64,000 nucleotides of DNA from a virus (IMGVR_UViG_3300042975_000096); one strand, 5' to 3'; shown: positions 30,822-64,000, counted from the stretch's first letter. The notes: generated from the sequence alone by a model not told the origin. Program-made: numbers and translations.

Positions 30822-30848
30822 AAAAATAAGCACAGTTGTGCTTATTTT
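30822..30848 (-). terminator. Rho-independent terminator between early and tail operons
   Basis: aaaataagcac...gtgcttatttt. Confidence 0.75.
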
Positions 30849-31308
30849 ATAATCCTTCTTGTAAAAATATATATTGTTTCATTTGTTTTATATTAGCATA
30901 ACCCTCAAAAAACATCACTATTTTATCAATTAATGTTTTTGGAATTTTTTCAAACATTCCATATGCATGTTCCCTTAAATTATATGTTTCCTTAATCGAA
31001 AATGTTTTTTCAAAAATAACTTTATGCGTTTTATCATATGCTATTATTTTACAATCAAAATTTTTTGATGCTTCTATATTTTTTATTTTATATGCTATTC
31101 GTATAAAGGTTGTTTTATTTATAAAATAAAAGTAACAATTATACGTTGCATACATATCATATTTCCACGTTTTAAAACAATGCACTCCATATGTATTCCC
31201 CTTTTTATCTGTATAAGAAGTGTTTTCTTTTATCTCCATGTCTTGTGTCAAACTCAAATTAAAATCAACCCTCTTTTTATTTTTATGCTCCCATAACATT
31301 AAAAACAA
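30847..31308 (-). CDS. G-[ILV]-tail family protein
   Basis: Ends IFLQEGL. Confidence 0.7.
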   Translation of the reverse strand: MFLMLWEHKNKKRVDFNLSLTQDMEIKENTSYTDKKGNTYGVHCFKTWKYDMYATYNCYFYFINKTTFIRIAYKIKNIEASKNFDCKIIAYDKTHKVIFEKTFSIKETYNLREHAYGMFEKIPKTLIDKIVMFFEGYANIKQMKQYIFLQEGL

Positions 31309-31702
31309 AATGCCTTAATCCATTCCATGTTTTCTTATCTTTATAAAAATAATCAATCATTGGTGGGAAATATTCATCAAACTTTTTATATATCTTTAAT
31401 CGTTTATCCATTTTATATCGTCCTATATGATTTAATAATCGCATATATTCATATTTTACTTCTGCCAAATTATTTAAATTTGGTCTTTGGTGTTCCAGGT
31501 AAAATAATCCTCGTTTATTAATATTCCCATACTTATCTGTCGTGCCTTTGTAACACGTATACCCTAATGTTAAAACTGTATCGCTATACATTTTAATACT
31601 AGCAATTATTTCAAAATATAAAATGCAATCACCATAATCTATTTTATATCTAATTACTTTTCCTGTCAAATTTGTTTGTTCAAAATCTTTTGTTACCTTC
31701 AT
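31283..31702 (-). CDS. G-[ILV]-tail family protein
   Basis: Ends VFNVMGA; paralog of 31736 (DKRLKIY..FDE.FPP.ID). Confidence 0.7.
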   Translation of the reverse strand: MKVTKDFEQTNLTGKVIRYKIDYGDCILYFEIIASIKMYSDTVLTLGYTCYKGTTDKYGNINKRGLFYLEHQRPNLNNLAEVKYEYMRLLNHIGRYKMDKRLKIYKKFDEYFPPMIDYFYKDKKTWNGLRHFVFNVMGA

Positions 31703-31735
31703 GATTCCTCCAAATGATTATAGCAATTCCATTTT

Positions 31736-32149
31736 CTATATACTTCTTCGATTAAATAATTCATGTCTTAGTATATCCCATGTTTTTGTGTCTGAACAAA
31801 ACTCATCAATAATAGGTGGGAAAATTTCATCAAAATATTGATATATCTTTAATCGTTTATCAATATGCGTTTTCTTTTGAACTTCTAATTTTTTCAAAAA
31901 TTTTTTCTTTATTAATTCCTTATTGCATAATTCCATATTTCTAGTTTGAATAAGAAAAATCGACCTATGAATATATTTTTCATTATCTAATTGATAACAA
32001 ATATATTGAATATCAAACAACTGATTACATTTTTTACTTATTGTTACTTTTATATCCAACATTAAATCAAATTGGTTTTTTTTAAAATCATAATATATAA
32101 ATACATCATTTAATTGTGGCTTTATTTTTACCAAATCCATCTTGTTCAC
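31736..32149 (-). CDS. G-[ILV]-tail family protein (variant tail)
   Basis: Ends LFNRRSI; paralog of 31283. Confidence 0.7.
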   Translation of the reverse strand: MNKMDLVKIKPQLNDVFIYYDFKKNQFDLMLDIKVTISKKCNQLFDIQYICYQLDNEKYIHRSIFLIQTRNMELCNKELIKKKFLKKLEVQKKTHIDKRLKIYQYFDEIFPPIIDEFCSDTKTWDILRHELFNRRSI

Positions 32150-32168
32150 TCTCCTAAAAAAACGGGGA

Positions 32169-33365
32169 TTAATCCCCGTTTTTCATCGCAATAACTACAC
32201 CATTTTTGGATTTTCCTGAAAGCTTCGCCATCGCAGTAAGTCTTTTATCTACTTTTTCCCTCAATTCCTTACTTCTCTTTAAAACATCGAAGTCATCCTC
32301 GCTATATCCTCTATATTCTTTTGTAATCCTCACCATACCCAATTCTGTATTAATAAATACAGCCATATCATTTGCATCAGAACAGTTAACAAATACATAA
32401 TCATCTTCCATTTTCATGGTTAAAAAATTAGACTCTTTACTCATGTATTCATGTAATGGCAGATTTTTGTGAATAATATCTTCTAGAATTCTAGAAGCAA
32501 TCAATCTGTTTTCTGAAGTATTGTTCTTCAAAACAATTGTATAGCAATGCCTAGTATCATCATTATACCAAATATTATCATTATGCACCATATTATAATG
32601 ATAATTCATTCCCAATACAGTATAGAGCTGAATTGTAACGTTTTTATGCTTATAAATAGGTGTAAATATGCGTTCAGATTCCTTTCCCAAAAATATTTTC
32701 AAATCTTTCTTGTTTTCTTCTGTGAGTTTATTCATGTTTTTAAATAACAGAAGAATCTTTTTCTTAAGCTTGATTATTTCTTCGTTTTCACAATCTTTCA
32801 GCATCTTAAAAACATTCGTTCTGTTAATCAAAAAACACTGTTCATTATCATAAATAATAAACTTAGCCGTAGGAATGCTTTCTGTCGTTCTTTCGCTTGT
32901 TGAAATAACAGGAGATGTCAATACTACTGCAAATGCCTGATTACCATTCCTTACAATTACCTTATTATAAATAACGTCTTTTTCTGATTCTGAATCAACT
33001 ACATGTTTCGTTACGGAAAGACCATCCTTTCCCTTGCGTTTCATTTTTTTAATAACGTCTTCCCCATGATAATACGTTGGCATCGAATCCATATCGTAAT
33101 TTTCTCCATAAAAAGAAACTTTTTTTCCAAAAAAATTCTTTAAACAAAATACGGTACGAGAATATTTTGTACTAACTTTTCCTGTCATTAAATCAATTAC
33201 CATAATATTATAACATTCAATCTGATTGTCATTTTTGCTACCTTTAAAAATAACAATTATATCATAGGTATAATACGTATAAATTTTGTGATATATTGTG
33301 TTATCAAAACTATTTTCTCTAACCTCTTCTTGTACTTCTTGTAGGATTTTATTCAATGCTTTCAT
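32169..33365 (-). CDS. Hypothetical early protein
   Basis: 398-aa ORF directly behind a consensus promoter. Confidence 0.65.
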   Translation of the reverse strand: MKALNKILQEVQEEVRENSFDNTIYHKIYTYYTYDIIVIFKGSKNDNQIECYNIMVIDLMTGKVSTKYSRTVFCLKNFFGKKVSFYGENYDMDSMPTYYHGEDVIKKMKRKGKDGLSVTKHVVDSESEKDVIYNKVIVRNGNQAFAVVLTSPVISTSERTTESIPTAKFIIYDNEQCFLINRTNVFKMLKDCENEEIIKLKKKILLLFKNMNKLTEENKKDLKIFLGKESERIFTPIYKHKNVTIQLYTVLGMNYHYNMVHNDNIWYNDDTRHCYTIVLKNNTSENRLIASRILEDIIHKNLPLHEYMSKESNFLTMKMEDDYVFVNCSDANDMAVFINTELGMVRITKEYRGYSEDDFDVLKRSKELREKVDKRLTAMAKLSGKSKNGVVIAMKNGD

Positions 33366-33390
33366 AACTCTGCCCCTCTCTTTTGATTTT

Positions 33391-33419
33391 ATTATAACAC
33401 AATATATTCATAATGTCAA
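33391..33419 (-). promoter_or_regulatory. Sigma-A type early promoter
   Basis: TTGACA-N17-TATAAT with TG. Confidence 0.85.
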
Positions 33420-33636: not shown

Positions 33637-34035
33637 TTATATTCCTTTCATTAAAAATATTTTATTTAATAAATACCACTTATATTTTGTTTCCATATAT
33701 TGAACCAAATATTGTCTCAATTCATTATTTATATTTATTTTCGTTCCACGTAACATTGAATTTATATTTATAATAAATTCCTCATAAGTCATTTCATCGC
33801 TATTGAACCTATAATAGGATAAACCTTTTTTCTTTTTATTTGTAAGATTTGAAAAAGAAAAACGTATGAGAGTTGATTCAGAACCATATTCATTTAAATA
33901 CCCAAAAACATATGAAGCAATACAAACGCTATATAATGATTGTTTTGTTTGTATCTTTAATGTCAATTCATGTAATGCCCTATCATCATAGCTTACAGAA
34001 TAGCTATATAGTTCTTCACAAACACCATACTTCAT
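33637..34035 (-). CDS. G-[ILV]-tail family protein
   Basis: Ends IFLMKGI; paralog of 34919 (MKYG.C.E). Confidence 0.7.
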   Translation of the reverse strand: MKYGVCEELYSYSVSYDDRALHELTLKIQTKQSLYSVCIASYVFGYLNEYGSESTLIRFSFSNLTNKKKKGLSYYRFNSDEMTYEEFIININSMLRGTKININNELRQYLVQYMETKYKWYLLNKIFLMKGI

Positions 34036-34038
34036 TTC

Positions 34039-34479
34039 TTATATCCCTACTTTTTTAAATAACGACCCTTTTATTTTATCCTTCGTAAAATACATATCCA
34101 TTATTTGTTCTACTTCTTTTCTAATTTCATTTTTGGTTTCATCATTAATAATGATATCATCTATATATTTATGAATGTTCTTTCTGAATTCTAAATCTTC
34201 AAATTCATTATTTTCTTCGTCATTAAATGCATAACTTCTTTTGTGCTCATAATAATAATTCGTCTTATTCTCTTTAGAAAAAGATTCATGGTTTGAATTA
34301 GTGTAAAACTGATAATAATTTATCTCTACACAATAATCTTTACTTAAATCTAAAGTGGAATCTTCAAAATAATATGCCAAATATAATTCCATAGTTATTT
34401 CAATTAATCCATTAAAATCGAAATAAAATGTTAAATGTCTATCATCATCTTCGGATTTCTTTGATAAATACATGCTCAT
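34039..34479 (-). CDS. G-[ILV]-tail family protein
   Basis: Ends LFKKVGI. Confidence 0.7.
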   Translation of the reverse strand: MSMYLSKKSEDDDRHLTFYFDFNGLIEITMELYLAYYFEDSTLDLSKDYCVEINYYQFYTNSNHESFSKENKTNYYYEHKRSYAFNDEENNEFEDLEFRKNIHKYIDDIIINDETKNEIRKEVEQIMDMYFTKDKIKGSLFKKVGI

Positions 34480-34500
34480 ATTTTTCTCCCCTTTTATTTA

Positions 34501-34529
34501 ATTATATCATAACTTTTCATTTTTGTCAA
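34501..34529 (-). promoter_or_regulatory. Sigma-A type early promoter
   Basis: TTGACA-N17-TATAAT, next to a terminator hairpin at 34539-34567. Confidence 0.85.
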
Positions 34530-34566
34530 TAAAAATAAAAAAGCTAACCATAATTGTGGTTAGCTT

Positions 34567-34913
34567 TTAAACACCATCTGCCAAAAACAATATATGATTT
34601 ATTTTATTCTGATTCAATAATATCTGTTTCGCCAAATGTTTATCTCTCGAATCAAATAAATCTATTACCGTTTCTATAATATCACTCATAATATCATCTC
34701 TTACTGTTGATATCCATTCTGTCGTAAATGGGGCTTTGAATTCATTTTTATAATCAATATACCACATTAATCTTAATCGCCCTCGCAAATCAGATTTCTG
34801 TACATTATAAATGATATGTAATTCAATTCTTCTTTATAATTATTATTTTTCGGATTAGAATAAATAATGTTTACAATGTGTTCCTTGAAATCTTTTTTTG
34901 AATAGTAATACAT
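34567..34913 (-). pseudogene. G-[ILV]-tail family protein with one frameshift
   Basis: ATG 34913 MYYYSKKDFKEH... and a second frame RIELHIIYNVQKSDLRGRLRL...LFLADGV; break near 34833. Confidence 0.55.
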
Positions 34914-34918
34914 TTTTA

Positions 34919-35317
34919 TTAAACCCCACTTTGTAAAAATATTTTATGATACATTAATCCCTTATATTTTTCTTTTACATATTGTGTTAAATGTTCTCGT
35001 AATTCACTTTCAATATCTATTTTTTCTCTGCTTAATATTTTTTCTAAATTCAAATCTAATTCTTTATCAATGAGCCTTTCTTGAAAAAAACTATAGTATA
35101 CAGATGTTATAACTCTTTTTGTTTTATCATCTTGAAAATAAAAACGTAAAAATACTAGTTTTTCACAAGTATTAATATACGAATTAATATTTAATTCAAT
35201 AATAACGTTATATGACATTTTTTTCGTTTTAATTAGTAATGTCGATTTATTATATATATTACTATCTTTATATTTGCAATCCTCTTGCTTTTCATCACAT
35301 ATTCCATATTTCATCAT
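34919..35317 (-). CDS. G-[ILV]-tail family protein
   Basis: Ends IFLQSGV. Confidence 0.7.
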   Translation of the reverse strand: MMKYGICDEKQEDCKYKDSNIYNKSTLLIKTKKMSYNVIIELNINSYINTCEKLVFLRFYFQDDKTKRVITSVYYSFFQERLIDKELDLNLEKILSREKIDIESELREHLTQYVKEKYKGLMYHKIFLQSGV

Positions 35318-35324
35318 ATTTCCT

Positions 35325-35705
35325 CTAAATTCCTACTTGTTGAATAATATATTTACGAGCTTGATTAATATAATTTTTTCCATAAATGTAATTGATGGTG
35401 GCATTAAAACATTTATCATATGTTTTATCCCATGCATGAATCATATTTTCCCATTTTTTCTTCTGCCTTAATTTAATTACAATGCTTTTTGTATCAAACC
35501 CTAGTTCCGTTTCTATAAACGTTTCTACCAAAGAATCCTTTTCACCATCATTCATTATAATGGTTAATGTGATTAATGCTAATCCTGGCTTAATTGAAAT
35601 TAATGTTACTTTCATTTTATTATCATTTTTTAATGGTACATATATTTCCATTTTCTCCATATCTTCGTTAATGCGTTCTTCCAAATCTTGCCTCACTGTT
35701 TTCAT
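35325..35705 (-). CDS. G-[ILV]-tail family protein
   Basis: Ends YIIQQVGI. Confidence 0.7.
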   Translation of the reverse strand: MKTVRQDLEERINEDMEKMEIYVPLKNDNKMKVTLISIKPGLALITLTIIMNDGEKDSLVETFIETELGFDTKSIVIKLRQKKKWENMIHAWDKTYDKCFNATINYIYGKNYINQARKYIIQQVGI

Positions 35706-35951
35706 CTCTTTTCTTTTCGCATTAATATACTTTGGAACAATCCTTATTTTTTTCTTCCATCAGTAAGAAAATATAGTTTTTGGATTATTTCTCATACTTT
35801 AATGTGTATGTCCTAGTAACAGTAGCGGTTTTTTCCTACTGCTTATCTTCTACTTACACAATATATTGCAACTATCAATCTTACTCTTAGTAGTATATCA
35901 AAAAAATCTTTCTCTCTAACAACAAGAAAATATATTTCGTTTTCTTCTCTA

Positions 35952-36383
35952 TTAAATACCTATTTCTTTTTTGACTTCTTCCTCTATCATTCTTGTTAAA
36001 TAATCTAGGTTTTTGGTGATTGCTTTATCTTCAAATTGATTATATAATTTTTCCTTATCTTGCTCATTCATTTTATTTAGTATTTTGTGTATTTCATCTT
36101 CCCTATATTTAATGGTGGATGGCAATTGCTCCCAATTATTAAAATCTTCTCTCGCACGTCTTAATAATCTTTGGATATTATTGTTATATACAATATCCCC
36201 ATAAGCCCACATATCGTTATTTTTATAACTAAAATACATACATATGGATTTCGTTTTTAGGTCATATATGCTTAAAGTTAAATATATACAAAATGTCATT
36301 GTCTTATTTATTTCAATGGATATTTTTTTTGTGCATTCTTCTTTTGTTAATATTTTGTTTACATCCCAAAAGTTATTTCCCAT
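35952..36383 (-). CDS. G-[ILV]-tail family protein
   Basis: Ends VKKEIGI. Confidence 0.7.
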   Translation of the reverse strand: MGNNFWDVNKILTKEECTKKISIEINKTMTFCIYLTLSIYDLKTKSICMYFSYKNNDMWAYGDIVYNNNIQRLLRRAREDFNNWEQLPSTIKYREDEIHKILNKMNEQDKEKLYNQFEDKAITKNLDYLTRMIEEEVKKEIGI

Positions 36384-36751
36384 TTCCTTCGCTCCCCTTT
36401 CATCATATCAGAATATTCTTCTTCCGTCGTTCTAGAACATAATTCTATGAATCGCTCTCTTTCTGCTTTCCTTAATATCGTTATATCATTTATCGCAGTT
36501 CGTATATCTTCAAATGATTCATAATTAAAAAACTTGCTTAAAAAATTATTATGCGCAGTAAATATTAATAAACGTACTTTTGGAGAAAATCCAAAAGTAG
36601 TATATATGTTCATATATATGTATTTCGTTCCTTCTGAAATAATTAACGTTGATTGTATCGTAAACTCTCCATCTTCTATATAGTCACTTACTGTTTTTAA
36701 ATGCCTATAATAATAAATTTCTTTTTTTATATGTACCCATTTCGTTTCCAT
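36359..36751 (-). CDS. G-[ILV]-tail family protein
   Basis: Ends WEITFGM. Confidence 0.7.
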   Translation of the reverse strand: METKWVHIKKEIYYYRHLKTVSDYIEDGEFTIQSTLIISEGTKYIYMNIYTTFGFSPKVRLLIFTAHNNFLSKFFNYESFEDIRTAINDITILRKAERERFIELCSRTTEEEYSDMMKGERRKWEITFGM

Positions 36752-36781
36752 TTTTCTTGCCCCTTATTTGGAGATGAAGAA

Positions 36782-37255
36782 CTAATTGCCATGAAGTAAA
36801 AAAATTTCATGCATTAATGCTTTTACTGTGTTTTCATAATCTAAGTTCATTAATAGCTTTTTCGTTTCTCTTATCATATTATAAAAATGCTCTTGCTTTA
36901 CAATTCCTTTTTCTATTAGACCTTTATGTAATCTTTTCCTGGTTAAAATTAAACTCGTTATATCCCCTATCAGTTGAATCGGTAATAATTCTTCCTTTAC
37001 TTGATATTCTATTTTACTTTCTTCTATACTGTAATTAAATGTGCTCATCATTTCATGTATTTTTTTATCACCTATAATTACTCGTATCATTAATCCTTTA
37101 TATTCATAATAACGAATATAAATTTTTATTTCCCATTCTTCATATTGATATGATTTGCATGATTCTATTATGCTCCATCCTAATGGCTTTGAAGGTGTAA
37201 ATAATGTCGGCATAAGGTTCATATCCTCCGTTCTAGGGGTTATTTTATATCCCAT
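36782..37255 (-). CDS. G-[ILV]-tail family protein (variant tail)
   Basis: Ends IFLLHGN. Confidence 0.7.
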   Translation of the reverse strand: MGYKITPRTEDMNLMPTLFTPSKPLGWSIIESCKSYQYEEWEIKIYIRYYEYKGLMIRVIIGDKKIHEMMSTFNYSIEESKIEYQVKEELLPIQLIGDITSLILTRKRLHKGLIEKGIVKQEHFYNMIRETKKLLMNLDYENTVKALMHEIFLLHGN

Positions 37256-37655
37256 ACTTTTTTATATAGGATTTTTTAACTGATTCATGTATGGATTTTA
37301 ATCTTCGTATTTCATTCTTTTTTTCTGTGGTTAATAAATCATTTAATTTCATCGTTCCTATAGTTTGCCCATTGGTCACTTCTAAATTCCATAACTCATT
37401 GAAATTAAATGGTTTTCCTTCTTTATCTAATGATGACAAAATTATCTTCTCTATTAGACTACTATCATATCTTTCATTCTTATATATAATTATAGAAGTG
37501 GATAATATACCTTCTTTCGGTGTTACTATACTTTCTATTAATATAGTATAATTCTCTCTTGCTTTCCATCCATCTATAATATAAAATCGTTCCCCATTCC
37601 ATACTTCTGTCCAATTGTTTTTGTTTACATTATATGTCGATATTCCAAATGCCAT
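37245..37655 (-). CDS. G-[ILV]-tail family protein
   Basis: Ends YIKKYGI. Confidence 0.7.
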   Translation of the reverse strand: MAFGISTYNVNKNNWTEVWNGERFYIIDGWKARENYTILIESIVTPKEGILSTSIIIYKNERYDSSLIEKIILSSLDKEGKPFNFNELWNLEVTNGQTIGTMKLNDLLTTEKKNEIRRLKSIHESVKKSYIKKYGI

Positions 37656-37738
37656 TCGTTACACCCCATATCGTTATATATATGCTATATAGATAATCCT
37701 ATATAATGTTCTTTTTTTGACCGGATTTTACTATATTT

Positions 37739-37767
37739 ATTATAACATTTATAATGATTTTTGTCAA
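37739..37767 (-). promoter_or_regulatory. Sigma-A type early promoter
   Basis: TTGACA-N17-TATAAT with TG. Confidence 0.85.
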
Positions 37768-37983
37768 CTAATTTTTAAAAATAATTGTTGACTTACTTAG
37801 ACCTTCATAGAGCGATTTTGTTTTATAGGGTATATAGTTGTATGGATTGTGTGCTTAAATGCTCTCTATGCTAATTCCTCGAAGTATTATCGCTATAGTA
37901 CGATTAATAAAAAAGAGAACTGATTCAAAAAGTTCTCTTTTCTTTGTATATTTATTTTTCTTCCCCATGTCGCAAAAATAAAT

Positions 37984-38009
37984 GAATTAGTATATATATA
38001 TACTAATTC
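37984..38009. repeat. Perfect 26-bp palindrome with a TA-repeat centre
   Basis: gaattagtatatatatatactaattc. Confidence 0.8.
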
Positions 38010-38410
38010 TAAAATAGTGGATGATTGTTATAAAGTATATTTAGTGACTGAAAAATGGTTCTTATATATAAGTGAAATTATAAAGTACATGGATTCAAAA
38101 AGTGGAAGTACATAAGTAGCTGATTATATAAATAGAGAAGTATATAGACATAAAATAAAAAAGTGGAGGCAGATGGTAATATATTAAACTATATAGATTG
38201 ATTAATTTGTTTTGCATTATTTATAAAAGTATATAGAGTAAAAAATTCTATATAGAAGTGGATGATAAAAAAGTGGAGGTATATAAGCAAATAGATATAG
38301 GTTTATTAACCATGGATTCAAAAAAGTGTATAAGTGGAGAAGTATGAAGTGGATATGTATAAAGTAGAAGTGTATAAAAAAGTGGAGGATAATTGTAATA
38401 TATCAAGTAT
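38010..38410 (+). repeat. Non-coding AAAAAGTGGA iteron-like array 2, homologous to array 1
   Basis: GTGGA cores at about 38017, 38102, 38163, 38258, 38273, 38334, 38349 and 38382; shares tgactgaa..aaatggtt and gtaatatattaaactatat with 12005-12330. Confidence 0.75.
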
Positions 38411-38418
38411 AGGTAAAT

Positions 38419-39893: not shown

Positions 39894-39905
39894 CCTTTCA
39901 TTTAT

Positions 39906-39934
39906 ATTATATCATAACTTTATGTTATTGTCAA
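39906..39934 (-). promoter_or_regulatory. Sigma-A type early promoter
   Basis: TTGACA-N17-TATAAT with TG. Confidence 0.85.
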
Positions 39935-39960
39935 TAATATAAAAAAATGGATTGTATAAA

Positions 39961-54504: not shown

Positions 54505-54538
54505 TCGCTACTCACCTCACTTGCTTATTCATAATATA

Positions 54539-55000: not shown

Positions 55001-55085
55001 ATATGATAATTTTAATTAAGATATAGTTTTCTATGTTCCATTTTTTGTATAATACACATCATTATATGTTCTAATTTTTGTATTC

Positions 55086-56408: not shown

Positions 56409-56428
56409 GATGATTATTCCCTCTTTAA

Positions 56429-56995
56429 TTATAATGCATTATGATTAAACAATTCCTTCTTTATATTATCCACATCAAAACGAGATGATTTATCATAAAT
56501 GACTCCACACATTAATTTTACTAGCCATATCGGTGGCACGTCAAATTGTTTTAATGGAGAATTATATATAGATGATTTATTATAATAAGAAGGTTCAATA
56601 TTTACCTCTTTATCGCGCTGATTCATATAATAATTGAATATTGCCTTAGTGCTCACCATATTATCATAGAACACTTGTTTGTTAGGGAAAGAAAAAGAAA
56701 TATGATATGTTTTATTTAGATAATCCCTATGAAAAAGGGCATCTAGGCGAATAGAATTTATATTGTGGTCTTGTTCTGTTGGTTCATAGACAAATTTCAA
56801 GGTCATGTGAGTACGATACTGCTTAAATTGTCTAGGTTCAATATAGTTAATAGATATTTGCAAAATCTTACTGAAAGCCGTATCTAATGAATTTTTCGCA
56901 TTAATTTTCAATTCATTATAAACACGTTCTTTATCGGTAATGAATTTTGTTTCTGTGACCGTTACATTACTAGGATTAAGTTCTATATTTCTCAT
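56429..56995 (-). CDS. G-[ILV]-tail family protein (Ala variant)
   Basis: Ends LFNHNAL. Confidence 0.7.
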   Translation of the reverse strand: MRNIELNPSNVTVTETKFITDKERVYNELKINAKNSLDTAFSKILQISINYIEPRQFKQYRTHMTLKFVYEPTEQDHNINSIRLDALFHRDYLNKTYHISFSFPNKQVFYDNMVSTKAIFNYYMNQRDKEVNIEPSYYNKSSIYNSPLKQFDVPPIWLVKLMCGVIYDKSSRFDVDNIKKELFNHNAL

Positions 56996-57010
56996 TTATC
57001 TGCTCCATTT

Positions 57011-57412
57011 CTAAATAATACCGATATTTAAAAAAGCATAATGCTTTAATTCTTCTATAGGAAATGTTTGAAATATACGAATCAATTTATGAACAAAATC
57101 GGCATCAAATAACGGATTTGATGCATCGATTAAATGATTTCTAAATTCCTTTTGAAATGCAGAATCACAATCACAATAATTAAGGGAACACCAATGTGTA
57201 ATCCATTTTTCATTATATGGATGGATTAATGCAAAATACGATTGAGAAAACATTTTTTTTCGTGTAACGGGAGATAATTGATGAAATATATTTATATTGT
57301 TTTCAAATAGAACATCTATTCTGTATGGCATATGATTAATTCTAATTTGAAAAGATAAATCTATCACCAATTCGCTAGAATCACTAATCTCACATGAATA
57401 AATTTCAATCAT
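57011..57412 (-). CDS. G-[ILV]-tail family protein
   Basis: Ends AFLNIGII. Confidence 0.7.
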   Translation of the reverse strand: MIEIYSCEISDSSELVIDLSFQIRINHMPYRIDVLFENNINIFHQLSPVTRKKMFSQSYFALIHPYNEKWITHWCSLNYCDCDSAFQKEFRNHLIDASNPLFDADFVHKLIRIFQTFPIEELKHYAFLNIGII

Positions 57413-57429
57413 GAATTAATTCCCTTCTG

Positions 57430-57855
57430 TCACATCACGATAATGCCTAAATTCATAAAAAAATCATGTTTGAATTTTTTCAATGAGAATTTCATTAATT
57501 CCAATCGAAGTTCTTCTGCAAAAAACTCTGCTTCTTTGCACTCCAAATTTTTTACATACATGCTATGCTTGCAATTTTCCAAAAACATTTTTTTATTTTC
57601 TAGATTTTCTAGTGATAAATACGGAATAATAACAGAAACAACGGGTGCTTCAACATCATTATCATTAACTTTATTTAAGGATATATGTGAAACAAAAAGC
57701 GGATTTTCTAGTATACGATTTTGATTCAATAGAAAAAGGTTATAATTAAAATCCAAACGATAATGATAGTTGTGATTCATAATTGTTATTTTTGAACCTA
57801 TCGCACAAGAAAAAATGCCATTATGATTCATTTTAAATGAAGCAATATGATACAT
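57430..57855 (-). CDS. G-[ILV]-tail family protein (extended tail)
   Basis: Ends FFMNLGIIVM. Confidence 0.7.
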   Translation of the reverse strand: MYHIASFKMNHNGIFSCAIGSKITIMNHNYHYRLDFNYNLFLLNQNRILENPLFVSHISLNKVNDNDVEAPVVSVIIPYLSLENLENKKMFLENCKHSMYVKNLECKEAEFFAEELRLELMKFSLKKFKHDFFMNLGIIVM

Positions 57856-58632
57856 TCAAACCCCTTCTCTCGAAAACAATAATCGAATATAATTTTGTTC
57901 CAATGTGGGGATTTTTGTTTTTAAATATTCAATCAAATCTAATTTTACACGATTCAATATACGCATTTTGAAATCCCTTTTTGGCAGATAGGGATTATCT
58001 GAACCAATCGTAAATTGGTTATTTTCTATAGTGGAATGAATGAAATCATTTAAGGCAATAGAAAAATTCATATCTTCAAAAATAGGAAATGCTTGTTGTG
58101 AGGACTTAGATGGAAATCTAAGAAATTTATGTTGATAATCAAAAACAGAAGCATTTATCTCTCTATCATATAAAATGTAAAATAATTTTTTATATCGTTC
58201 ATTTCGACTAAAATGATGATTAGAACTTTTTTCCACAATATTTGCAAATGAGCTAACATCAAATCCATATGAACCATTTGATTGATAAAGAAAAGGGTCT
58301 TTAATTAAGTCCTGCAATTCGTCAAAATCTTCTTCATGATGCAAATTGATGTTCAGTATATCCATGCTTATTCTGCCCTCTGCAAATGCATATTTCTGTA
58401 CGTTTTTGTTTTTACCATCCTTACAATATGCTTTCAAGCTGTTTATAATAGATACAACATCTGAAAAATTTAAATAACTAGGATATTCGTTATATTTCAT
58501 GTTTTCCGCATACGCTATGTTTTCTGAAAACAGACTGTTGTTCTTATATAAGAAACCTTCATTGATTACGGCTAACATGGTATAGCCTTTATCTCGAAAC
58601 AAAAACATTTGTTGTGATATATATGAACTCAT
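57856..58632 (-). CDS. G-[ILV]-tail family protein (long)
   Basis: Ends LFSREGV. Confidence 0.7.
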   Translation of the reverse strand: MSSYISQQMFLFRDKGYTMLAVINEGFLYKNNSLFSENIAYAENMKYNEYPSYLNFSDVVSIINSLKAYCKDGKNKNVQKYAFAEGRISMDILNINLHHEEDFDELQDLIKDPFLYQSNGSYGFDVSSFANIVEKSSNHHFSRNERYKKLFYILYDREINASVFDYQHKFLRFPSKSSQQAFPIFEDMNFSIALNDFIHSTIENNQFTIGSDNPYLPKRDFKMRILNRVKLDLIEYLKTKIPTLEQNYIRLLFSREGV

Positions 58633-58647
58633 AACATTAAATTCTCC

Positions 58648-59298
58648 TTAAATTCCATTTGTTTTTCGATATTGTTTCAAAATCACTTGTTGCAGGGATG
58701 GCATTTTCGATTCTAAAAAAGCAGACATCTCTTTGTTGATTTGATTCAATCTATGTATTTTAAAACTATTTTCCATAAGTAATGCATCGTGATTCAATAA
58801 TGTTTCGGAATGGGTTTTACCTGTCAAACAATTATTTAGTGAGCTATTCATTTTTCGGCTTATTTTATACAATATATCCATAAGGTTAGTTGCTCCCTCA
58901 TATAATGAATAGGATTCATTTATTATTGTCCATGATAGTTTTTTTTGATAGGACTTTAATGATTCACAATTAAATGAATTTGTAAAGAAATTTGCAATAG
59001 TATCCCAACGCAAGGACTGATTTTTTGTGCTATTATAATTAATAAAAATTGCATTGTTTGATAATTCCAATACTCGTTTTTCTGTATATGCATTACAGAC
59101 CACATCATAACGATAACAGTCACATCGAATAGCTAATTTATGAGAACGAATAGGTAGTTTTTCATTTGTCCAAAAAGAAGAATAGGTTGTATCTACACGT
59201 GCTATACTATCATAAGTTATAAAAAACACAAACAGATATTTATATCCTAATGATTGATAAGGAACGCATTGTATAATAAGGTGCTCACTCGGTTTCAT
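58648..59298 (-). CDS. G-[ILV]-tail family protein (long)
   Basis: Ends YRKTNGI; paralog of 59998. Confidence 0.7.
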   Translation of the reverse strand: MKPSEHLIIQCVPYQSLGYKYLFVFFITYDSIARVDTTYSSFWTNEKLPIRSHKLAIRCDCYRYDVVCNAYTEKRVLELSNNAIFINYNSTKNQSLRWDTIANFFTNSFNCESLKSYQKKLSWTIINESYSLYEGATNLMDILYKISRKMNSSLNNCLTGKTHSETLLNHDALLMENSFKIHRLNQINKEMSAFLESKMPSLQQVILKQYRKTNGI

Positions 59299-59301
59299 TT
59301 T

Positions 59302-59739
59302 TTATAATCCTCCCACTAAAAACCAACTATGCATAAGCATTTTTCCTCGATTTTTATTGCAAATGAAAGACATTATCATTTTTATAAAATCGTGTTTATA
59401 TTTATATTCTCTCATTCGTTTATCAAAAACGAAACAGTTATATTTTTCTTTATTTTTAAATTTACATTTTTCTGTCTTAAAATCAATTAGTTTATTTTCC
59501 CAAATAACAGGCATATGGAGTGTATGCATACACAAAGATTGCTTCCGATTCTGACGTTTTTTTAAGGAATATAAAGATACTGTACCGGAAGCAAGAGACA
59601 TGTTTGAAAATATATTATATACTAATATATATCTATCATTCAATTCTTCTAATGCATTAATAATAACCTTGTAGTGTATGGATATATATTCACCATGTAT
59701 TAATTTAATGTTAGGCATGTTATTTTTTTCAATAAACAC
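59302..59739 (-). CDS. G-[ILV]-tail family protein
   Basis: Ends WFLVGGL; paralog of 60716 (FDKR..E.KYK..FI). Confidence 0.7.
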   Translation of the reverse strand: MFIEKNNMPNIKLIHGEYISIHYKVIINALEELNDRYILVYNIFSNMSLASGTVSLYSLKKRQNRKQSLCMHTLHMPVIWENKLIDFKTEKCKFKNKEKYNCFVFDKRMREYKYKHDFIKMIMSFICNKNRGKMLMHSWFLVGGL

Positions 59740-59741
59740 AA

Positions 59742-59873
59742 TTACAATCCTTCTTCTGTAAATAATATATGATGAAAAAAAGATGCATTATAGACTGAAC
59801 TCAAAAATATATAGATACCGTCTAATACTAAATGCAAAGATTCCAACCGCTTATTAACTATATAATAGCACAT
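59742..59873 (-). pseudogene. Tail-only mini-ORF or relic (43 aa), homologous to the C-terminus of 62088..62621
   Basis: MCYYIVNKRLESLHLVLDGIYIFLSSVYNASFFHHILFTEEGL*; below the ORF-track size cut-off. Confidence 0.6.
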
Positions 59874-59890
59874 TTTTTAAAAATTGTCAA
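59862..59890 (-). promoter_or_regulatory. Sigma-A type early promoter
   Basis: TTGACA-N17-TATTAT with TG; nearly identical to 62656-62684. Confidence 0.75.
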
Positions 59891-59997
59891 CAAATAAAAA
59901 ACAAACCTGTGTTCTGAGCGAATGGAGGTTTGTTTTTTTATTATTCATTTTTTCAAGTTCGTTATCTAACACTTTTTCAAATGCTGAATTATCATAA

Positions 59998-60711
59998 TTA
60001 AATTCCATTTGTATTTCGATATCGTTTTTTGAATAAATCAACTATCACAGGTATTTGATTCAATACGAATTGATTTACGGTATCTTGAATTTTAATGAAC
60101 GCTTTATCTCTAGCACAAAGTTCAAAACTCAAAATATTATTATAATTGATAGGGTTAATTAAAGTATATGGTCTACATTTAATTTCATCTTCTATGTGTT
60201 TTTGAAATTCATTTACATCAATTAATCCATGTTCCAATCGACTTTCCAACATATCAAAAAAACAATATTTTAGGTGTTCTTTTGTAACAGAAGAAACACT
60301 ATTTTTTCCATTAAAAACATCCTTAAAATTTAATAGGAAATCACGTATTATATTTAGTCGTTCCATATCAGATTTTGTTCCTAGAGTAAATGACTCTATG
60401 TGTTCAAATCCATTATAATCTCCAAACATAGGTTCTTTTATTAAATTTAATAAACGTTTCTTTAATGTAACGTTTTTAATTATATCCACGCGATAAATAA
60501 TACATGACGTTTGAACCAAATGGGAATAATCATAAAAACCATCATGATGGTTTTTAAGAAGTCGAAGTTTATTGAAATAAGTCGGAAAACTACTATAACT
60601 AAGACAGCTATTATATGTCAATCGAAACATAACGACAAATTCATATCCTAATACTTTTAAATAATCGCATAAAAAAATCACATGTGCATTTGGTTGATAA
60701 AAACTTTTCAT
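59998..60711 (-). CDS. G-[ILV]-tail family protein (long)
   Basis: Ends YRNTNGI. Confidence 0.7.
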   Translation of the reverse strand: MKSFYQPNAHVIFLCDYLKVLGYEFVVMFRLTYNSCLSYSSFPTYFNKLRLLKNHHDGFYDYSHLVQTSCIIYRVDIIKNVTLKKRLLNLIKEPMFGDYNGFEHIESFTLGTKSDMERLNIIRDFLLNFKDVFNGKNSVSSVTKEHLKYCFFDMLESRLEHGLIDVNEFQKHIEDEIKCRPYTLINPINYNNILSFELCARDKAFIKIQDTVNQFVLNQIPVIVDLFKKRYRNTNGI

Positions 60712-60715
60712 TGTT

Positions 60716-61165
60716 TTATAATCCTCGATTCAAAAAGAATAATCGTGCTACTTGTTTTCGTCGTTCCTCATTATTTATAAAATTATCAATTATATCAATA
60801 AATTCGTTTTTATATTTAAATTCTTTTCTCCGTTTATCGAATTTTAATTTGTTATACTCTATTGCTAATTGAAATGATTGCATTTCTTGACTGTTATCCA
60901 TCATTCTATTTCTCCAAAATGCGTGCATATATAATGGACATAGTAACACCTGTTGTTTACTTGTATAGTCATAAATTAAAATTTCAGCAGGAATAATAAC
61001 GCTATTTTCAATACAGTCCACATATTTATTTCTGTTTTTTATATAGATGATTACTGCATATGTTCGGTTCAATTTTTCTGAAGAAAAATATCCAGCACAT
61101 TTAACGTTAAAATAAAAACCGTCTAAAATGCTATAAGGAACGATTCTCATACCTTCAATAACCAT
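60716..61165 (-). CDS. G-[ILV]-tail family protein
   Basis: Ends FFLNRGL. Confidence 0.7.
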   Translation of the reverse strand: MVIEGMRIVPYSILDGFYFNVKCAGYFSSEKLNRTYAVIIYIKNRNKYVDCIENSVIIPAEILIYDYTSKQQVLLCPLYMHAFWRNRMMDNSQEMQSFQLAIEYNKLKFDKRRKEFKYKNEFIDIIDNFINNEERRKQVARLFFLNRGL

Positions 61166-61168
61166 TTA

Positions 61169-61627
61169 TCATGCTCCTATTTGTTTGAATAACGCAGACC
61201 TGAAATCTTCTAAATCATCCCTATAAAAAAATGCTTTATCTTTTCTCATTAGTTTAATCGCGTTATAAAAATCATTAACAGATATGTTGAAATCTATATG
61301 TGAATATAAATTATGTTTGCCAAAGAAGCAATTGATAACTGTTTCACCGATATATTTTACATCTTCAATTTCAAACAATTTAACATCGTAACCGCCTTGT
61401 ATTTTCTTATCGGATATATACTGATTTTGTACATCATCGTCTATGAATTTTTCAATATTTCCATCATCAAACGCTGAATCTACATATTTAAAAACAAATG
61501 TTTTAATCACTAAATCGTCATTCTTTAATTTGTTTAATATGGCTATCGTGATAATATATATCCACTTTTCATTTTTTACGTTTACTGTTCCATAATAATC
61601 AGCTAATTTATCCTTCATAACCTTCAC
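61169..61627 (-). CDS. G-[ILV]-tail family protein
   Basis: Ends LFKQIGA; paralog of 61624 (FDDG..EKF). Confidence 0.7.
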   Translation of the reverse strand: MKVMKDKLADYYGTVNVKNEKWIYIITIAILNKLKNDDLVIKTFVFKYVDSAFDDGNIEKFIDDDVQNQYISDKKIQGGYDVKLFEIEDVKYIGETVINCFFGKHNLYSHIDFNISVNDFYNAIKLMRKDKAFFYRDDLEDFRSALFKQIGA

Positions 61628-62091
61628 ACCCCACTTCTTTTGAATTGTGCAGTTTTAAGTTTTTCTAAATCATTTCTATAAAGGAATTCCTTATGTTTTC
61701 GCAATTCCTTAATCACTTGACAAAGACTTGCATTGGAAAGATGAAAATTACTTGTGCGGTCAATAAGTTCATCATTTTCATCTAAAAAACAACTTATAGC
61801 TGTTTCTCCCACATTACGTATTTCTTCTGCTCTAAATATTTGTGAAGTGAATCCACCCAAAATTTTTTCATGTGCTATATTCCAACGACGAACATTATAA
61901 TCTGTGAATTTTTCAACATCGCCATCATCGAATGAAAATTCAATGTATCTAAATATAAGTGATTCAACGTTCAACAAATAATTTAATTTAGGATTGTTTA
62001 ATGCATTAACATTAATGACATACATCCATTTATCATGAAACATATCGATTGTTCCACAAAATGAAGCCAATTTATTATTCATGATAATCAC
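61624..62091 (-). CDS. G-[ILV]-tail family protein
   Basis: Ends QFKRSGV. Confidence 0.7.
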   Translation of the reverse strand: MIIMNNKLASFCGTIDMFHDKWMYVINVNALNNPKLNYLLNVESLIFRYIEFSFDDGDVEKFTDYNVRRWNIAHEKILGGFTSQIFRAEEIRNVGETAISCFLDENDELIDRTSNFHLSNASLCQVIKELRKHKEFLYRNDLEKLKTAQFKRSGV

Positions 62092-62621
62092 ACTCCATTC
62101 GTCATAAATGTAATATGACGAATTTTTTCATCATCATATACACGATTCAAAAAATTATCAACTCCGACCATTGCTAAATCCAAAGACTTTAATCGATTAT
62201 CAATAGCTTCTTTTGATGTTTTGTAAACATTTCTTTTACAAGCGGATTGTTTTGTGCGTTTGATACTACTACGAATCAATGATTTTTTGTTTCTTATCTT
62301 TTTCATTAAATCATAAGTATTACCTAAAAATGATAATTGATTCTCACTGTAATATGAAACATATCCTTTTTCAAATCCACCATGAGTAAAATTATAAGAT
62401 AAAAAAACGCTAGTTTTATTATAATCAATATATGCCTGTATGTGTCCATTATATAAAAAACCATCAAAATTAAATGAAAAGCTGAAATCAAAATAATCAA
62501 TACATTTCATTTCAATTAGTTTATCTATTCCGGTATGGTTATAGCACACACTACCTTCCTTCATTTTGTATGTTCTTTGTGTGTTTTCATGCATATTAGT
62601 GTTTCTCTCTATTCTTATCAT
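62088..62621 (-). CDS. G-[ILV]-tail family protein
   Basis: Ends TFMTNGV. Confidence 0.7.
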   Translation of the reverse strand: MIRIERNTNMHENTQRTYKMKEGSVCYNHTGIDKLIEMKCIDYFDFSFSFNFDGFLYNGHIQAYIDYNKTSVFLSYNFTHGGFEKGYVSYYSENQLSFLGNTYDLMKKIRNKKSLIRSSIKRTKQSACKRNVYKTSKEAIDNRLKSLDLAMVGVDNFLNRVYDDEKIRHITFMTNGV

Positions 62622-62655: not shown

Positions 62656-62684
62656 ATAATAGCACATTTTTAAAAAATTGTCAA
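62656..62684 (-). promoter_or_regulatory. Sigma-A type early promoter
   Basis: TTGACA-N17-TATTAT with TG; terminator hairpin at 62695-62730. Confidence 0.75.
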
Positions 62685-62730
62685 TAAATATATAAAAAAT
62701 GGAATGTCTATTGCTAAACATTCCATTTTT

Positions 62731-62916
62731 TTATTTTCTTTTTTTTAATTCCGCATCCAATACTTTTTCAAATTCAGAATCTTCATAATTAAACATATCA
62801 CCATTATAATTATATTTAAAATTACTGATAAGCTGAAAAAATCTAGTATCAGGATAATCTTCCCATAAGATTTTAATTTTTTCTAAAATACGCTCAATAC
62901 GTTTTTCATCACGCAT
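62731..62916 (-). CDS. YihD/DUF1040-like small protein
   Basis: MRDEKRIERILEKIKILWEDYPDTRFFQLISN. Confidence 0.6.
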   Translation of the reverse strand: MRDEKRIERILEKIKILWEDYPDTRFFQLISNFKYNYNGDMFNYEDSEFEKVLDAELKKRK

Positions 62917-62918
62917 GA

Positions 62919-63218
62919 TTAAATTCCCTCCAATTTCTTATATTCAACATGCATATTATGAAGGTGTTTCTCAATAATTTTAATTAATGTTAGTTGTATC
63001 TCTGGTTCGGATATTACATGTTTAATATCGTCAAAAACTTTTTTTGTTTCCACTTCATCATAAATGGAAAACGTATATTCTTTAGAAGCCGAATTCAACA
63101 TTTCTTCTAATAAAATATTTACTTCTCCACTTCGCAATAATCTGAAAAACAATGCATACGTAAAATTTTGTTCCATTTTCATATAAACTACTTTATTTTT
63201 TTTGTTAACTGCATCCAT
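62919..63218 (-). CDS. G-[ILV]-tail family protein
   Basis: Ends YKKLEGI. Confidence 0.7.
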   Translation of the reverse strand: MDAVNKKNKVVYMKMEQNFTYALFFRLLRSGEVNILLEEMLNSASKEYTFSIYDEVETKKVFDDIKHVISEPEIQLTLIKIIEKHLHNMHVEYKKLEGI

Positions 63219-63235
63219 AATAACATCCTTTCTAA

Positions 63236-63661
63236 TTACACGCCATAAATGGAAAAGATAATATGATATATGTATTCCATCTGCTTCATAGCATATTTAT
63301 CAAAAAACAAGAAATTTATAATTTTGTGTTCTTTTTGAAATGCAAGTACGTTTTTTATCATACAATATAACAATTGATTTCTATCAAACACTTCATTAAA
63401 TAAAAGCGAATCTAATTTCAAACAATTACTCTTATTTATAAAATTGGACATTCTTAGGTGTATGACAAATATATTATATGTAAAACAATGAAACAAGGTT
63501 AAATTCAATGTATAACTGTTTGTATCATATCCTTCTATAATTATAAAATTGATGTGTAAAAAAATAGATAGTTGATAATAAAAATAATGTTTTCTAAACA
63601 ACTCATTTCCCGAAAACGAAAATGTTCTTTCATCAAAAATACCCGTATCTAAAAAGTTCAT
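63236..63661 (-). CDS. G-[ILV]-tail family protein
   Basis: Ends IFSIYGV. Confidence 0.7.
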   Translation of the reverse strand: MNFLDTGIFDERTFSFSGNELFRKHYFYYQLSIFLHINFIIIEGYDTNSYTLNLTLFHCFTYNIFVIHLRMSNFINKSNCLKLDSLLFNEVFDRNQLLYCMIKNVLAFQKEHKIINFLFFDKYAMKQMEYIYHIIFSIYGV

Positions 63662-63666
63662 AATAA

Positions 63667-64000
63667 CTATATCCCTCTCGCCATAAATAAATGATGTCGC
63701 AATTCACAATTAATGTTATTCATTTTGTGGTGCTTTAATTGATTGATAATGCTATTTATATGACCTTTATTAACATCAGTTAACGAATACGTGCTTTTGG
63801 CAAATAAATATAAGGACATGAGTTGTTCAAGCCATGCATGAAAATCACATGATGGAACAAAAGAATCAATATTTCTATCTTCATTATCCATATACGTTTG
63901 CCTATATATCCAGTTGGTTTCTTCTCCGTCTATATACAACTTATATACAAAAGTTATCCTGTTTTGAGGTTCAAAATACATACATGTGTATCGCAATAAA
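63667..64000 (-). CDS. G-[ILV]-tail family protein, probably 5'-truncated by the window edge
   Basis: Ends LFMARGI. Confidence 0.65.
   Translation of the reverse strand, partial: LLRYTCMYFEPQNRITFVYKLYIDGEETNWIYRQTYMDNEDRNIDSFVPSCDFHAWLEQLMSLYLFAKSTYSLTDVNKGHINSIINQLKHHKMNNINCELRHHLFMARGI

Follow-up and report, generated by a model that had tools for sequence, protein, structure and literature searches.

A candidate lineage-specific expansion of 48 small phage genes with a common C-terminal ending

Background

A close precedent for a Firmicute jumbo phage in which one small domain has multiplied into dozens of copies is Bacillus phage G, with a zinc-ribbon family that numbers approximately 35 members and whose expansion was called unprecedented (PMC7824862). 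Here we describe a comparable array in a 64,000 nucleotide stretch of DNA from the virus IMGVR_UViG_3300042975_000096, referred to throughout as the window, the carrier of which, a low-GC phage, would be of the jumbo class and infect a Gram-positive bacterium that is itself low in GC. Its family differs from that of phage G in comprising 48 copies of what is predicted to be an alpha+beta protein without metal ligands, in having diverged far more deeply, with most pairs being unalignable, and in the almost complete turnover of arrays between phages with structural proteins 50-79% identical. With 48 copies, relative to approximately 35, it is apparently larger than any other expansion of a single gene family that we found described for a phage.

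Kinship among small early phage proteins may be visible in predicted structure only, as for GoF, MotB.1 and Frd.2 of T4, for which a single LSm-like fold is predicted despite their dissimilar sequences (PMC12152347). The present, probably early, proteins are alike in this respect, although the T4 case involves three proteins rather than 48, a different fold and no conserved terminal motif. In layout, the array recalls the terminal-redundancy module of phage SPO1, an early host-takeover gene cluster behind strong sigma-A promoters: both group small genes of unknown function into short operons, which have terminators and promoters of the host consensus type and are set apart from the late module. 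The genes of SPO1, however, neither form one paralogous family nor share a terminal motif. Short C-terminal elements common to otherwise different proteins are also familiar as recognition tags, such as ssrA, ClpX C-motifs, PDZ ligands and encapsulin cargo-loading peptides, all of them flexible extensions with a known partner that reads them; by contrast, the tail of the present family is modelled as part of a packed helix, and extended variants of it exist.

Results and discussion

A C-terminal ending shared by 48 genes

A preliminary description of the window, made from the sequence alone, had proposed that about 48 open reading frames (ORFs) share a C-terminal ending despite most pairs being dissimilar elsewhere. 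Recounting gave the same total: 41 genes end exactly in G-[ILVMA], thus having Gly at position -2 and I, L, V, M or A at position -1, and seven further genes have variant ends (FNRRSI, FLLHGN, FFKEAI, FNLNAL, FNHNAL, ..GII and ..GIIVM), with one or three extra residues in two of them and replacement of the Gly (by A or S) or of the last residue in the other five. Members are 73-258 aa long, with a median of 149. Phe occupies position -6 in 33 of the 48, slightly fewer than the 35 or so originally estimated, the remainder having mostly I or L. The canonical ending is found in 41 of 101 de-nested minus-strand ORFs, against 1.3 expected from composition, and in only two of 329 frames on the plus strand, so the proposed enrichment is borne out; likewise, 28 of the 40 occurrences of F...G[ILVMA] in 19,783 residues lie at the extreme C-terminus. 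All but one of the 41 canonical genes fall within 30847-63996, and family genes cover 65% of the region from 30.8 to 64 kb, such that the expansion occupies two thirds of a probable 33 kb early region. As had been stated for the recognisable non-family genes, the tail is absent from ORFs at 1-30.7 kb, the sole exception being an outlying family-like gene of 157 aa within the structural module (11500-11973, ending EKRFGI), which is followed by a terminator at 11488-11462.

All members lie on the minus strand, mostly in tandem blocks. Block A (30847-32149) contains three genes (30847-31308, 31283-31702 and 31736-32149) ending in FLQEGL, FNVMGA and FNRRSI, of which the last two are BLAST paralogs. 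Block B (33637-37655) comprises nine genes of 73-157 aa, ending in FLMKGI, FKKVGI, FLADGV, FLQSGV, IQQVGI, KKEIGI, EITFGM, FLLHGN and IKKYGI, and block C (39103-41306) five genes of 130-153 aa, ending in FINYGL, LRKVGL, FITNGL, SQYVGI and RRMNGI. The largest, block D (47543-54504), has 14 genes of 137-192 aa, including a seven-member subfamily (alignment A1) and a three-member subfamily (A3). An isolated gene of 149 aa (55086-55535) is flanked by non-coding DNA and ends in QSYIGI, the G-I being kept despite 581 nt of non-coding sequence downstream. Block F (55860-62621) consists of 12 genes of 133-258 aa, among them four BLAST pairs and the variant ends NAL (two genes), GII and GIIVM, while block G (62919-63996) has three genes of 99, 141 and 109 aa ending in KKLEGI, FSIYGV and FMARGI.

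These genes are arranged as short operons behind sigma-A-like promoters. Between 30.8 and 64 kb there are seven perfect TTGACA-17-TATAAT sites and five matching at 11 of 12 positions (starting at 41393, 51080, 54567, 59890 and 62684), every one of them between genes and on the coding strand, against one perfect intergenic site in the 30.8 kb structural half, in agreement with the consensus host-type promoters originally reported. The perfect sites, again on the minus strand, lie ahead of a non-family gene of 398 aa (33391-33419), within block B directly past the terminator of the gene at 34567-34788 (34501-34529), upstream of block B (37739-37767), within block C (39906-39934), downstream of block D (47461-47489), between two family genes (48055-48083) and at 53041-53069, where the promoter also has a TG extension. 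Since transcription would proceed from host sigma-A-type promoters, the family genes are probably expressed early, a timing suggested by promoter consensus only.

Sequence similarity within and beyond the family

Outside the tail, BLAST and phmmer recovered only small subfamilies of at most five members, or seven after HMM iteration, with nine BLAST subfamilies among the family genes. Comparing the two largest with hhalign gave a probability of 0.1%, and neither phmmer with the tails trimmed nor hhalign between subfamilies revealed additional links, which upholds the dissimilarity of most pairs and means that sequence cannot prove a single family. With the tail taken away, the subfamilies are not joined by any sequence method, and common descent of the bodies is instead inferred from their architecture, their size and their arrangement in tandem. 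The tail is nevertheless the slowest-changing part: between paralogs, identity is 51% over the last 16 residues relative to 27% for the remainder, and between orthologs 81% relative to 70%. In A3, residues presumed to lie on the surface of the last helix, such as E-Y-L-H-Y-K, are invariant in paralogs otherwise 32-55% identical, which a structural cap alone does not account for.

The system could not be matched to any described one, as the preliminary description had anticipated: scanning all 48 members against Pfam and PHROG gave scattered sub-threshold matches and none above a curated threshold. An exhaustive HMMER search of the seven-member A1 profile against 1.84 billion protein cluster representatives found no members beyond the phage's own copies: this search and a second protein-homology lookup for A1 recovered window paralogs and their strain variants at 89-99% and, apart from these, a single stretch of 36 residues matching a protein of 1217 aa. 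There was no match for the A1 profile in five related IMG/VR records, for 27 kb of the window in 50,697 GenBank phages by megablast, for one family member by tblastn, or for the window in Rfam. A search of genome contigs with the conserved neighbour gene was likewise empty, and hence gave no clue to the host.

Predicted structure and the helix cap

AlphaFold2 (AF2) models were obtained for two of approximately 35 sequence-distinct lineages, from alignments of seven and three rows. The first (52572-53021, pLDDT 77.7) has strands to residue 73 followed by helices at 81-106, 112-131 and 133-148; the second (53163-53594, pLDDT 67.6) has strands to residue 87 followed by helices at 90-96, 108-124 and 127-141. 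Hence two subfamilies without detectable sequence similarity (hhalign probability 0.1%) are both modelled as a sheet of five to six strands followed by C-terminal helices. In a crude propensity profile, N-terminal halves were beta-prone and C-terminal halves alpha-prone throughout the family, a pattern that controls did not show. DSSP assignments place the motif at the end of an alpha-helix in both models, the last helix reaching residue 148 of 149 and 141 of 143.

In a Schellman cap (Aurora and Rose 1998), Gly at C' terminates a helix in a left-handed conformation with 6-to-1 and 5-to-2 backbone hydrogen bonds. A hydrophobic patch joins C3 and C''; such caps have been studied in a test peptide of the form ..X-A-A-X-G-X, and full burial was seen for 87% of the sampled hydrophobic triangles (PMC9951308). 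The family motif has exactly the spacing of such a cap, with F(-6) at C3, G(-2) at C' and the hydrophobic residue (-1) at C''; furthermore, the Ccap position (-3) is often hydrophobic (Tyr, Val or Ile), and the AF2 helix directly precedes the motif. It departs from the typical case in that the cap is also the end of the chain in 41 of the 48 paralogs and is the only element conserved throughout a multigene family. A Schellman cap is an intramolecular stability element and is usually buried, and the ending is best read as a candidate of this kind. A structural cap alone also fails to explain why the chain terminates exactly at C'' in 41 of the 48 members.

Fold searches with both models (PDB Foldseek, BFVD, ESM Atlas and VIA-align wide) returned nothing above background, and ESM Atlas look-ups of three members nothing usable. 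The levivirus coat-protein fold is a beta-meander plus C-terminal helices; comparisons with it gave Foldseek E values of 0.015 or worse, TM scores of 0.3-0.44 and VIA-align Z scores of 5-5.8, inside the background range, with Z of at most 3.4 for the second model. A homodimer prediction scored 0.00, which counts neither for nor against binding.

On balance, we favour, by a modest degree, the explanation that a single small, very fast-evolving, alpha+beta early protein, the ending of which is a helix cap, has undergone a lineage-specific expansion to 48 genes. The copies are tandem and on the same strand, subsets are demonstrably paralogous, and two unlinked subfamilies share a predicted architecture. 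The product would be a small, basic protein with an N-terminal antiparallel sheet of five to six strands followed by two or three helices, and divergence of the array would be so fast that the last helix alone remains recognisable. The hydrophobic(-7)-F(-6)-x-x-x-G(-2)-hydrophobic(-1) ending would form a Schellman C-cap with a C3/C'' hydrophobic staple, and its Gly would outlast drift elsewhere because the left-handed conformation it is predicted to adopt makes it hard to replace. Head-to-tail packing of the genes may be why the chain ends directly past the cap, and in approximately two thirds of genes the (K/R)-G codons would double as the Shine-Dalgarno sequence of the next gene, imposing a second constraint. 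A helix-capping glycine, reinforced by an overlapping ribosome-binding site, could in this way outlive all other sequence signal.

Turnover of the array in related phages

The proposed check for the same tail in related phages found syntenic arrays in two metagenomic phages, with 32 genes in G004 and at least nine in L042; these 32 and nine were chosen by their G-hydrophobic ending, all having Gly at -2. They end in a hydrophobic-hydrophobic-x-x-x-G-hydrophobic pattern, [YF][IVL]xxxG[LIMV], with I, V or T at -6 in G004. The arrays of G004, L042 and a further relative, L043, lie directly upstream of an ortholog of the window gene encoding 713 aa at 28604-30745. L040 has one family member and G002 a different array of small genes, while the sampled parts of G001, G003 and G005 had no such array, although these may lie outside the syntenic region, synteny not being demonstrable because the neighbour gene was undetectable there.

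Between G004 and L043 the ligase is 98% and the neighbour gene 95% identical, but family orthologs only 53-82%, matching the very fast evolution expected of a repertoire for takeover or anti-defence. When the window or L042 is compared with G004, flanking genes are 46-79% identical and one family member in all has a BLAST match. Such near-complete replacement of the array between phages with virion proteins 50-79% identical is the pattern expected for a direct arms race with the host. The array probably functions in host takeover or anti-defence, its copies being, we infer, binders or inhibitors of host targets diversified by arms-race selection, and would therefore represent a ready-made, naturally diversified panel for finding such activities.

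Alternative explanations for the ending

The tail could instead be a true C-terminal recognition tag of all members, read by one common partner such as a host ClpX-type unfoldase or tail-specific protease (making it a degron), a hub protein or a phage factor, which would give the repertoire the same fate or address; we think this unlikely, and less parsimonious than a helix cap. The chain does end one residue past the Gly, both in 41 of the 48 members and in a further 41 genes from two other phages, and the last helix is the slowest-evolving part, presumed surface positions included. The tail of this phage is also basic and then non-polar (mean net charge of the last 16 residues +1.7), loosely recalling ClpX C-motif 2 (MuA ..RRKKAI). 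However, this basic character, part of the original description, holds only for the window phage, the mean in G004 being +0.3. Seven of the 48 members have G replaced by A or S, an altered last residue or one to three extra residues, which may argue against a strict requirement for a free C-terminus, and an intramolecular helix cap fully accounts for the motif spacing. Among the scanned window proteins there is no PDZ, S41 or Clp candidate reader, and the only peptidase found is an M16 enzyme located in the late module. The analyses gave no sign for or against docking, a degron, sorting or Atg8-like trimming. The broader proposal, that the helix and G-hydrophobic end are an address label by which one host or phage factor docks approximately 48 effectors or clears them on schedule, the array being a plug-in effector library sharing one adaptor across a clade of Firmicute jumbo phages, is similarly doubtful; if it held, phage effectors would have a shared address of a new kind.

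Improbable for other reasons is a modular library, in which unrelated N-terminal domains have been recombined onto one C-terminal helix cassette, with the cassette and the stop/Shine-Dalgarno/start junction serving as a module for recombination and translational coupling. The unalignable bodies with common tails fit such a library, the junction does double as a Shine-Dalgarno sequence, and a natural variant contig, L039 (Logan SRR23702487), includes an in-frame chimera of two different subfamilies, formed by a 714 bp deletion with 4 bp microhomology, but this chimera is known from one short contig. Tail codons vary freely (TTT or TTC for Phe; GGA, GGG, GGT or GGC for Gly; at least six codons for the last residue), leaving no conserved DNA cassette on which to recombine. 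The two modelled subfamilies, moreover, are predicted to share their overall architecture rather than to differ in their N-terminal domains. The original proposal of variable N-terminal domains joined to a constant docking tail is thus not sustained, given that two dissimilar subfamilies model alike and that the spacing is that of a textbook Schellman cap.

That the ending merely results from tight gene packing and the ribosome-binding site downstream is largely refuted, and very improbable, as the preliminary description had argued: 14 genes with gaps of more than 12 nt to the next start, before terminators, promoters or long spacers, keep the G-hydrophobic ending, with F(-6) as frequent (10/14) as in coupled genes (18/26); it is absent from 24 coupled non-family genes (gaps of at most 12 nt) with an embedded Shine-Dalgarno sequence; and such a sequence cannot produce Phe at -6 or the hydrophobic periodicity at -7, -11 and -14. 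The overlap itself is real, in that 26 of 40 canonical genes lie at most 12 nt from the next start, and in 23 of these (88%) the Gly codon is GGA or GGG, GGG making up 35% of their Gly codons relative to 8% across the window, a fourfold enrichment; the Gly codon of coupled genes therefore doubles as the Shine-Dalgarno sequence of the next gene. In L042, the last residue is V in eight of nine genes (Fisher p = 6e-6), and this G-V ending is mostly encoded by GGAGT, a core Shine-Dalgarno sequence. Co-evolution with a partner was set aside as the cause of this preference, as GGAGT is simply the best Shine-Dalgarno sequence. Ribosome binding thus biases the choice of Gly codon in coupled genes, although it does not make the motif itself.

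A family of small genes with a common C-terminal ending

All genes in the window, which has a G+C content of 27%, are on the minus strand, with a late module at 1-30.7 kb and, from 30.8 to 64 kb, small genes along with an NAD-dependent DNA ligase. Translation of the minus-strand ORFs of at least 50 aa, with nested ones dropped, gave a set of 101, of which 41 end in G-[ILVMA], against 1.3 predicted from composition; in the plus-strand control, this ending is found in only 2 of 329 frames. Forty of the 41 are located at 30847-63996 and the other at 11500-11973. The same arrays contain seven near-variants, in which the Gly is replaced by Ala (three) or Ser (one), the final residue is Asn (one), or one or three extra residues follow G-I (two). 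The total is therefore 48 'tail family' genes, as the preliminary description had estimated; these are 73-258 aa long (median 149) and make up 65% of the 33 kb region. Phe occupies position -6, counted back from the C-terminus, in 33 of the 48, slightly fewer than the 35 or so originally credited with a Phe four residues before the Gly.

The sequence leading up to the motif tends to be hydrophobic at -7, -11 and -14/-15 and basic at -8 to -10, which, judged from sequence, is how an amphipathic helix would be spaced. The proteins are also basic overall (median pI 8.6-8.8, versus 6.1 for other ORFs). The preliminary description had the motif capping a basic amphipathic helix; a surplus of positive charge in the tail is particular to this phage, being +1.7 here versus +0.3 in the related IMG/VR contig G004.

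BLAST, phmmer and HMM iteration linked the proteins only into a subfamily with 5-7 members, another with three and seven pairs, leaving the remainder as singletons, and hhalign gave a probability of 0.1% for the two largest subfamilies, in keeping with the earlier statement that most pairs lack similarity outside the tail. None of the 48 exceeded the thresholds of Pfam or PHROG, and no description of the family or its terminal signature was found in the literature, in line with the view that this is not a described system. A profile of the seven-member subfamily, run against an index of 5.8 billion proteins and, by exhaustive HMMER, over 1.84 billion representatives, retrieved only its own copies and strain variants of 89-99% identity; alleles in this range exist in public reads. 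Among described cases, the nearest is the zinc-ribbon expansion of phage G, with around 35 copies, which was called unprecedented (PMC7824862); the tail-family array exceeds it in size and has diverged much further. The same principle is evident on a small scale in the T4 early proteins GoF, MotB.1 and Frd.2, which are akin by fold alone (PMC12152347).

Expression signals and non-coding gaps

The preliminary description's consensus host-type promoters were recovered as seven perfect and five 11/12 matches to TTGACA-17-TATAAT on the coding strand between 30.8 and 64 kb, all of them intergenic; a single perfect intergenic match occurs in the 30.8 kb late half. Terminator hairpins are present 3' of several tail-family genes. 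Together, these promoter sites and hairpins support transcription by the host RNA polymerase in putative operons of about 1-8 genes, and the tail-family genes are probably expressed early. Two gaps in the array are non-coding: that at 37656-38418 has at least three copies of repeats that contain AAAAAAGTGGAGG, at intervals of about 90-110 nt, and that at 54505-55085 includes a 122 nt unit repeated with overlaps. Neither gap had a match in Rfam. Plus-strand promoter-like sites were observed in the latter at 54727 and 54852.

Arrays in related phages

Related IMG/VR contigs were reached via the terminase, and three further contigs (L043, L042 and L040) through a metagenome scan with a conserved neighbour, the 713 aa gene at 28604-30745 that adjoins the array. 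The late module of the 281 kb G004 is syntenic with that of the window, at 30-79% protein identity, and directly upstream of its ortholog of the 713 aa gene lies an array of 32 genes (65-219 aa) ending [YF]-[IV]-x-x-x-G-[LIM]. L043 is closely related to G004; in L042, which represents a third lineage, nine genes in a row end in [YF]-[IL]-x-x-x-G-V, and L040 has only one gene with such an ending.

No BLAST match at E < 0.01 was found between the tail family of the window and G004, whereas flanking genes are 48-79% identical. A single one of the nine L042 members matches G004, at 30% identity, and between G004 and L043 the tail-family orthologs are only 53-82% identical, compared with 98% for the ligase and 95% for the neighbour gene. 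With identities so high in the flanks and so low, or undetectable, in the tail family, the arrays evidently evolve several-fold faster than their surroundings, yet keep their position and ending. In the more distant relative G002, the syntenic place (contig 3-26.6 kb) holds about 30 genes of 80-110 aa with a different C-terminal helix pattern, namely three hydrophobic residues, x, K, a hydrophobic residue and then K or G, with a Gly 1-7 residues from the end; this array may be a sister expansion.

Predicted structure and the proposed helix cap

AlphaFold2 modelled the seven-member subfamily from a seven-row alignment (gene 52572-53021; 149 residues, mean pLDDT 77.7, pTM 0.66) as six strands within residues 5-73 followed by helices at 81-106, 112-131 and 133-148. 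The three-member subfamily, which has no visible kinship to it, was modelled from three rows (gene 53163-53594; 143 residues, pLDDT 67.6, pTM 0.68) as five strands within residues 4-87 and then helices at 90-96, 108-124 and 127-141. Both models share the same predicted architecture. A rough propensity profile across the family found the N-terminal half to be beta-prone and the C-terminal half alpha-prone, a polarity absent from control ORFs. Neither model matched solved, viral or Atlas structures above background; the best VIA-align Z scores were 6.7 and 4.3. Weak matches recurred to levivirus coat proteins and to further folds in which helices lie on one face of a sheet.

In the register of a helix C-terminus, positions -6 to -1 correspond to C3, C2, C1, Ccap, C' and C''. 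In the Schellman loop, the commonest helix C-cap, C' is Gly, and C3 and C'' make a hydrophobic contact in which Ccap often takes part; a test peptide for this cap has the form ..X-A-A-X-G-X, and among the sampled hydrophobic triangles 87% were fully buried (PMC9951308). The tail family's F-x-x-(Y/V/I/polar)-G-(I/L/V) fits the cap spacing exactly, as does the (I/V)-x-x-x-G-(L/I/M/V) of its relatives. A Gly obliged to be left-handed is harder to substitute than any other residue, which would explain why the Gly outlasts all other sequence. Constraint is strongest over the last helix: paralog pairs are 51% identical over their last 16 residues versus 27% elsewhere, and orthologs 81% versus 70%, which would fit a role in core packing or an interface alike.

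Origin of the family

We lean towards the view that one small alpha+beta protein, probably early, has undergone a lineage-specific expansion and that the conserved ending is its terminal helix cap. The copies would have diversified through conflict with the host, and the chain would stop right at the cap because of tight gene packing and overlap with the Shine-Dalgarno (SD) sequence. The architecture, cap spacing, SD overlay, synteny and rates on which this expansion is based are tool results. Common descent of all tail-family bodies appears likely, and the proteins may act in takeover or anti-defence.

That the ending is a docking or degron tag, as the preliminary description proposed, is unlikely: the exact point at which the chain terminates and the invariant surface residues of the last helix would accord with a tag, but it would require a reader protein and have to tolerate the seven off-register or substituted members. 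An origin through cassette shuffling is more doubtful still, there being no conserved DNA at the tail, though a naturally occurring in-frame fusion between two subfamilies, on one short public contig, L039 (Logan SRR23702487), lends it slight support. Relative to window 51274-53062, this contig is a strain variant with a clean 714 bp deletion (51986-52699) at a 4 bp microhomology, which removes gene 52115-52570 and joins residues 6-107 of gene 52572-53021 in frame to residues 39-137 of gene 51698-52111; with just one short contig showing it, the chimera may have arisen during assembly.

An SD artefact alone is all but excluded as the source of the ending. Some overlay is real, as in the 26 canonical genes within 12 nt of the next start codon (K/R)-G codons (for example AAG GGG, AGG GGA and AGA GGT) lie 7-9 nt before the next ATG, and GGG accounts for 35% of the terminal Gly codons of these coupled genes versus 8% of all Gly codons. 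However, the 14 genes with terminators, promoters or long spacers downstream keep G-hydrophobic and have F(-6) equally often, 24 coupled non-family genes place an SD without this ending, and each of the four Gly codons and the two Phe codons is used in the tails. The constraint therefore acts on the protein, with translational coupling overlaid; the preliminary description had likewise held that the ending is not just an SD by-product.

Other genes of the array and late module

A second fast-evolving family, of 390-490 aa, is interleaved with the tail family, with one copy in the window (32169-33365), two in G004 (138817-141765, in L015/L016), two in L042 (7307-9919) and at least three in L040 (1062-6262), in which it seems to stand in for the small-gene array. 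Its members are 19-30% identical between phages and had no match in Pfam or PHROG. A 263 aa protein with the Cys-rich C-terminal repeat CDCNCDCNCDC is encoded at 41438-42229 on the minus strand. Two small paralogous minus-strand ORFs of 80 and 97 aa (45419-45661 and 46097-46390), among the non-family genes beside the ligase, have the hydrophobic look-alike C-termini YGFLLVIRLY.. and YGLLLILRIY...

The late module encodes a large terminase, accompanied by Hint and LAGLIDADG intein parts, as well as an M16 peptidase and large structural proteins whose genes are duplicated. The terminase, with its Hint intein parts, and a separate ORF lie at 2081-5259 (minus strand); the 369 aa ORF after the terminase overlaps it by 16 nt and has an intein-splicing and a LAGLIDADG domain, and in G004 the terminase and inteins form a single 1569 aa ORF. 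The adjoining M16 (insulinase-type) peptidase (790-2019, minus strand) has both halves and is 53% identical to its G004 counterpart. Megablast of 27 kb of the window against 50,697 GenBank phages found no close relative. A three-gene structural block is tandemly duplicated at 18933-28616 (minus strand), as paralog pairs 18933/23418, 20093/24843 and 21535/26871; the last pair is nearly identical over its final 16 residues, and the same tandem duplication is found in G004.
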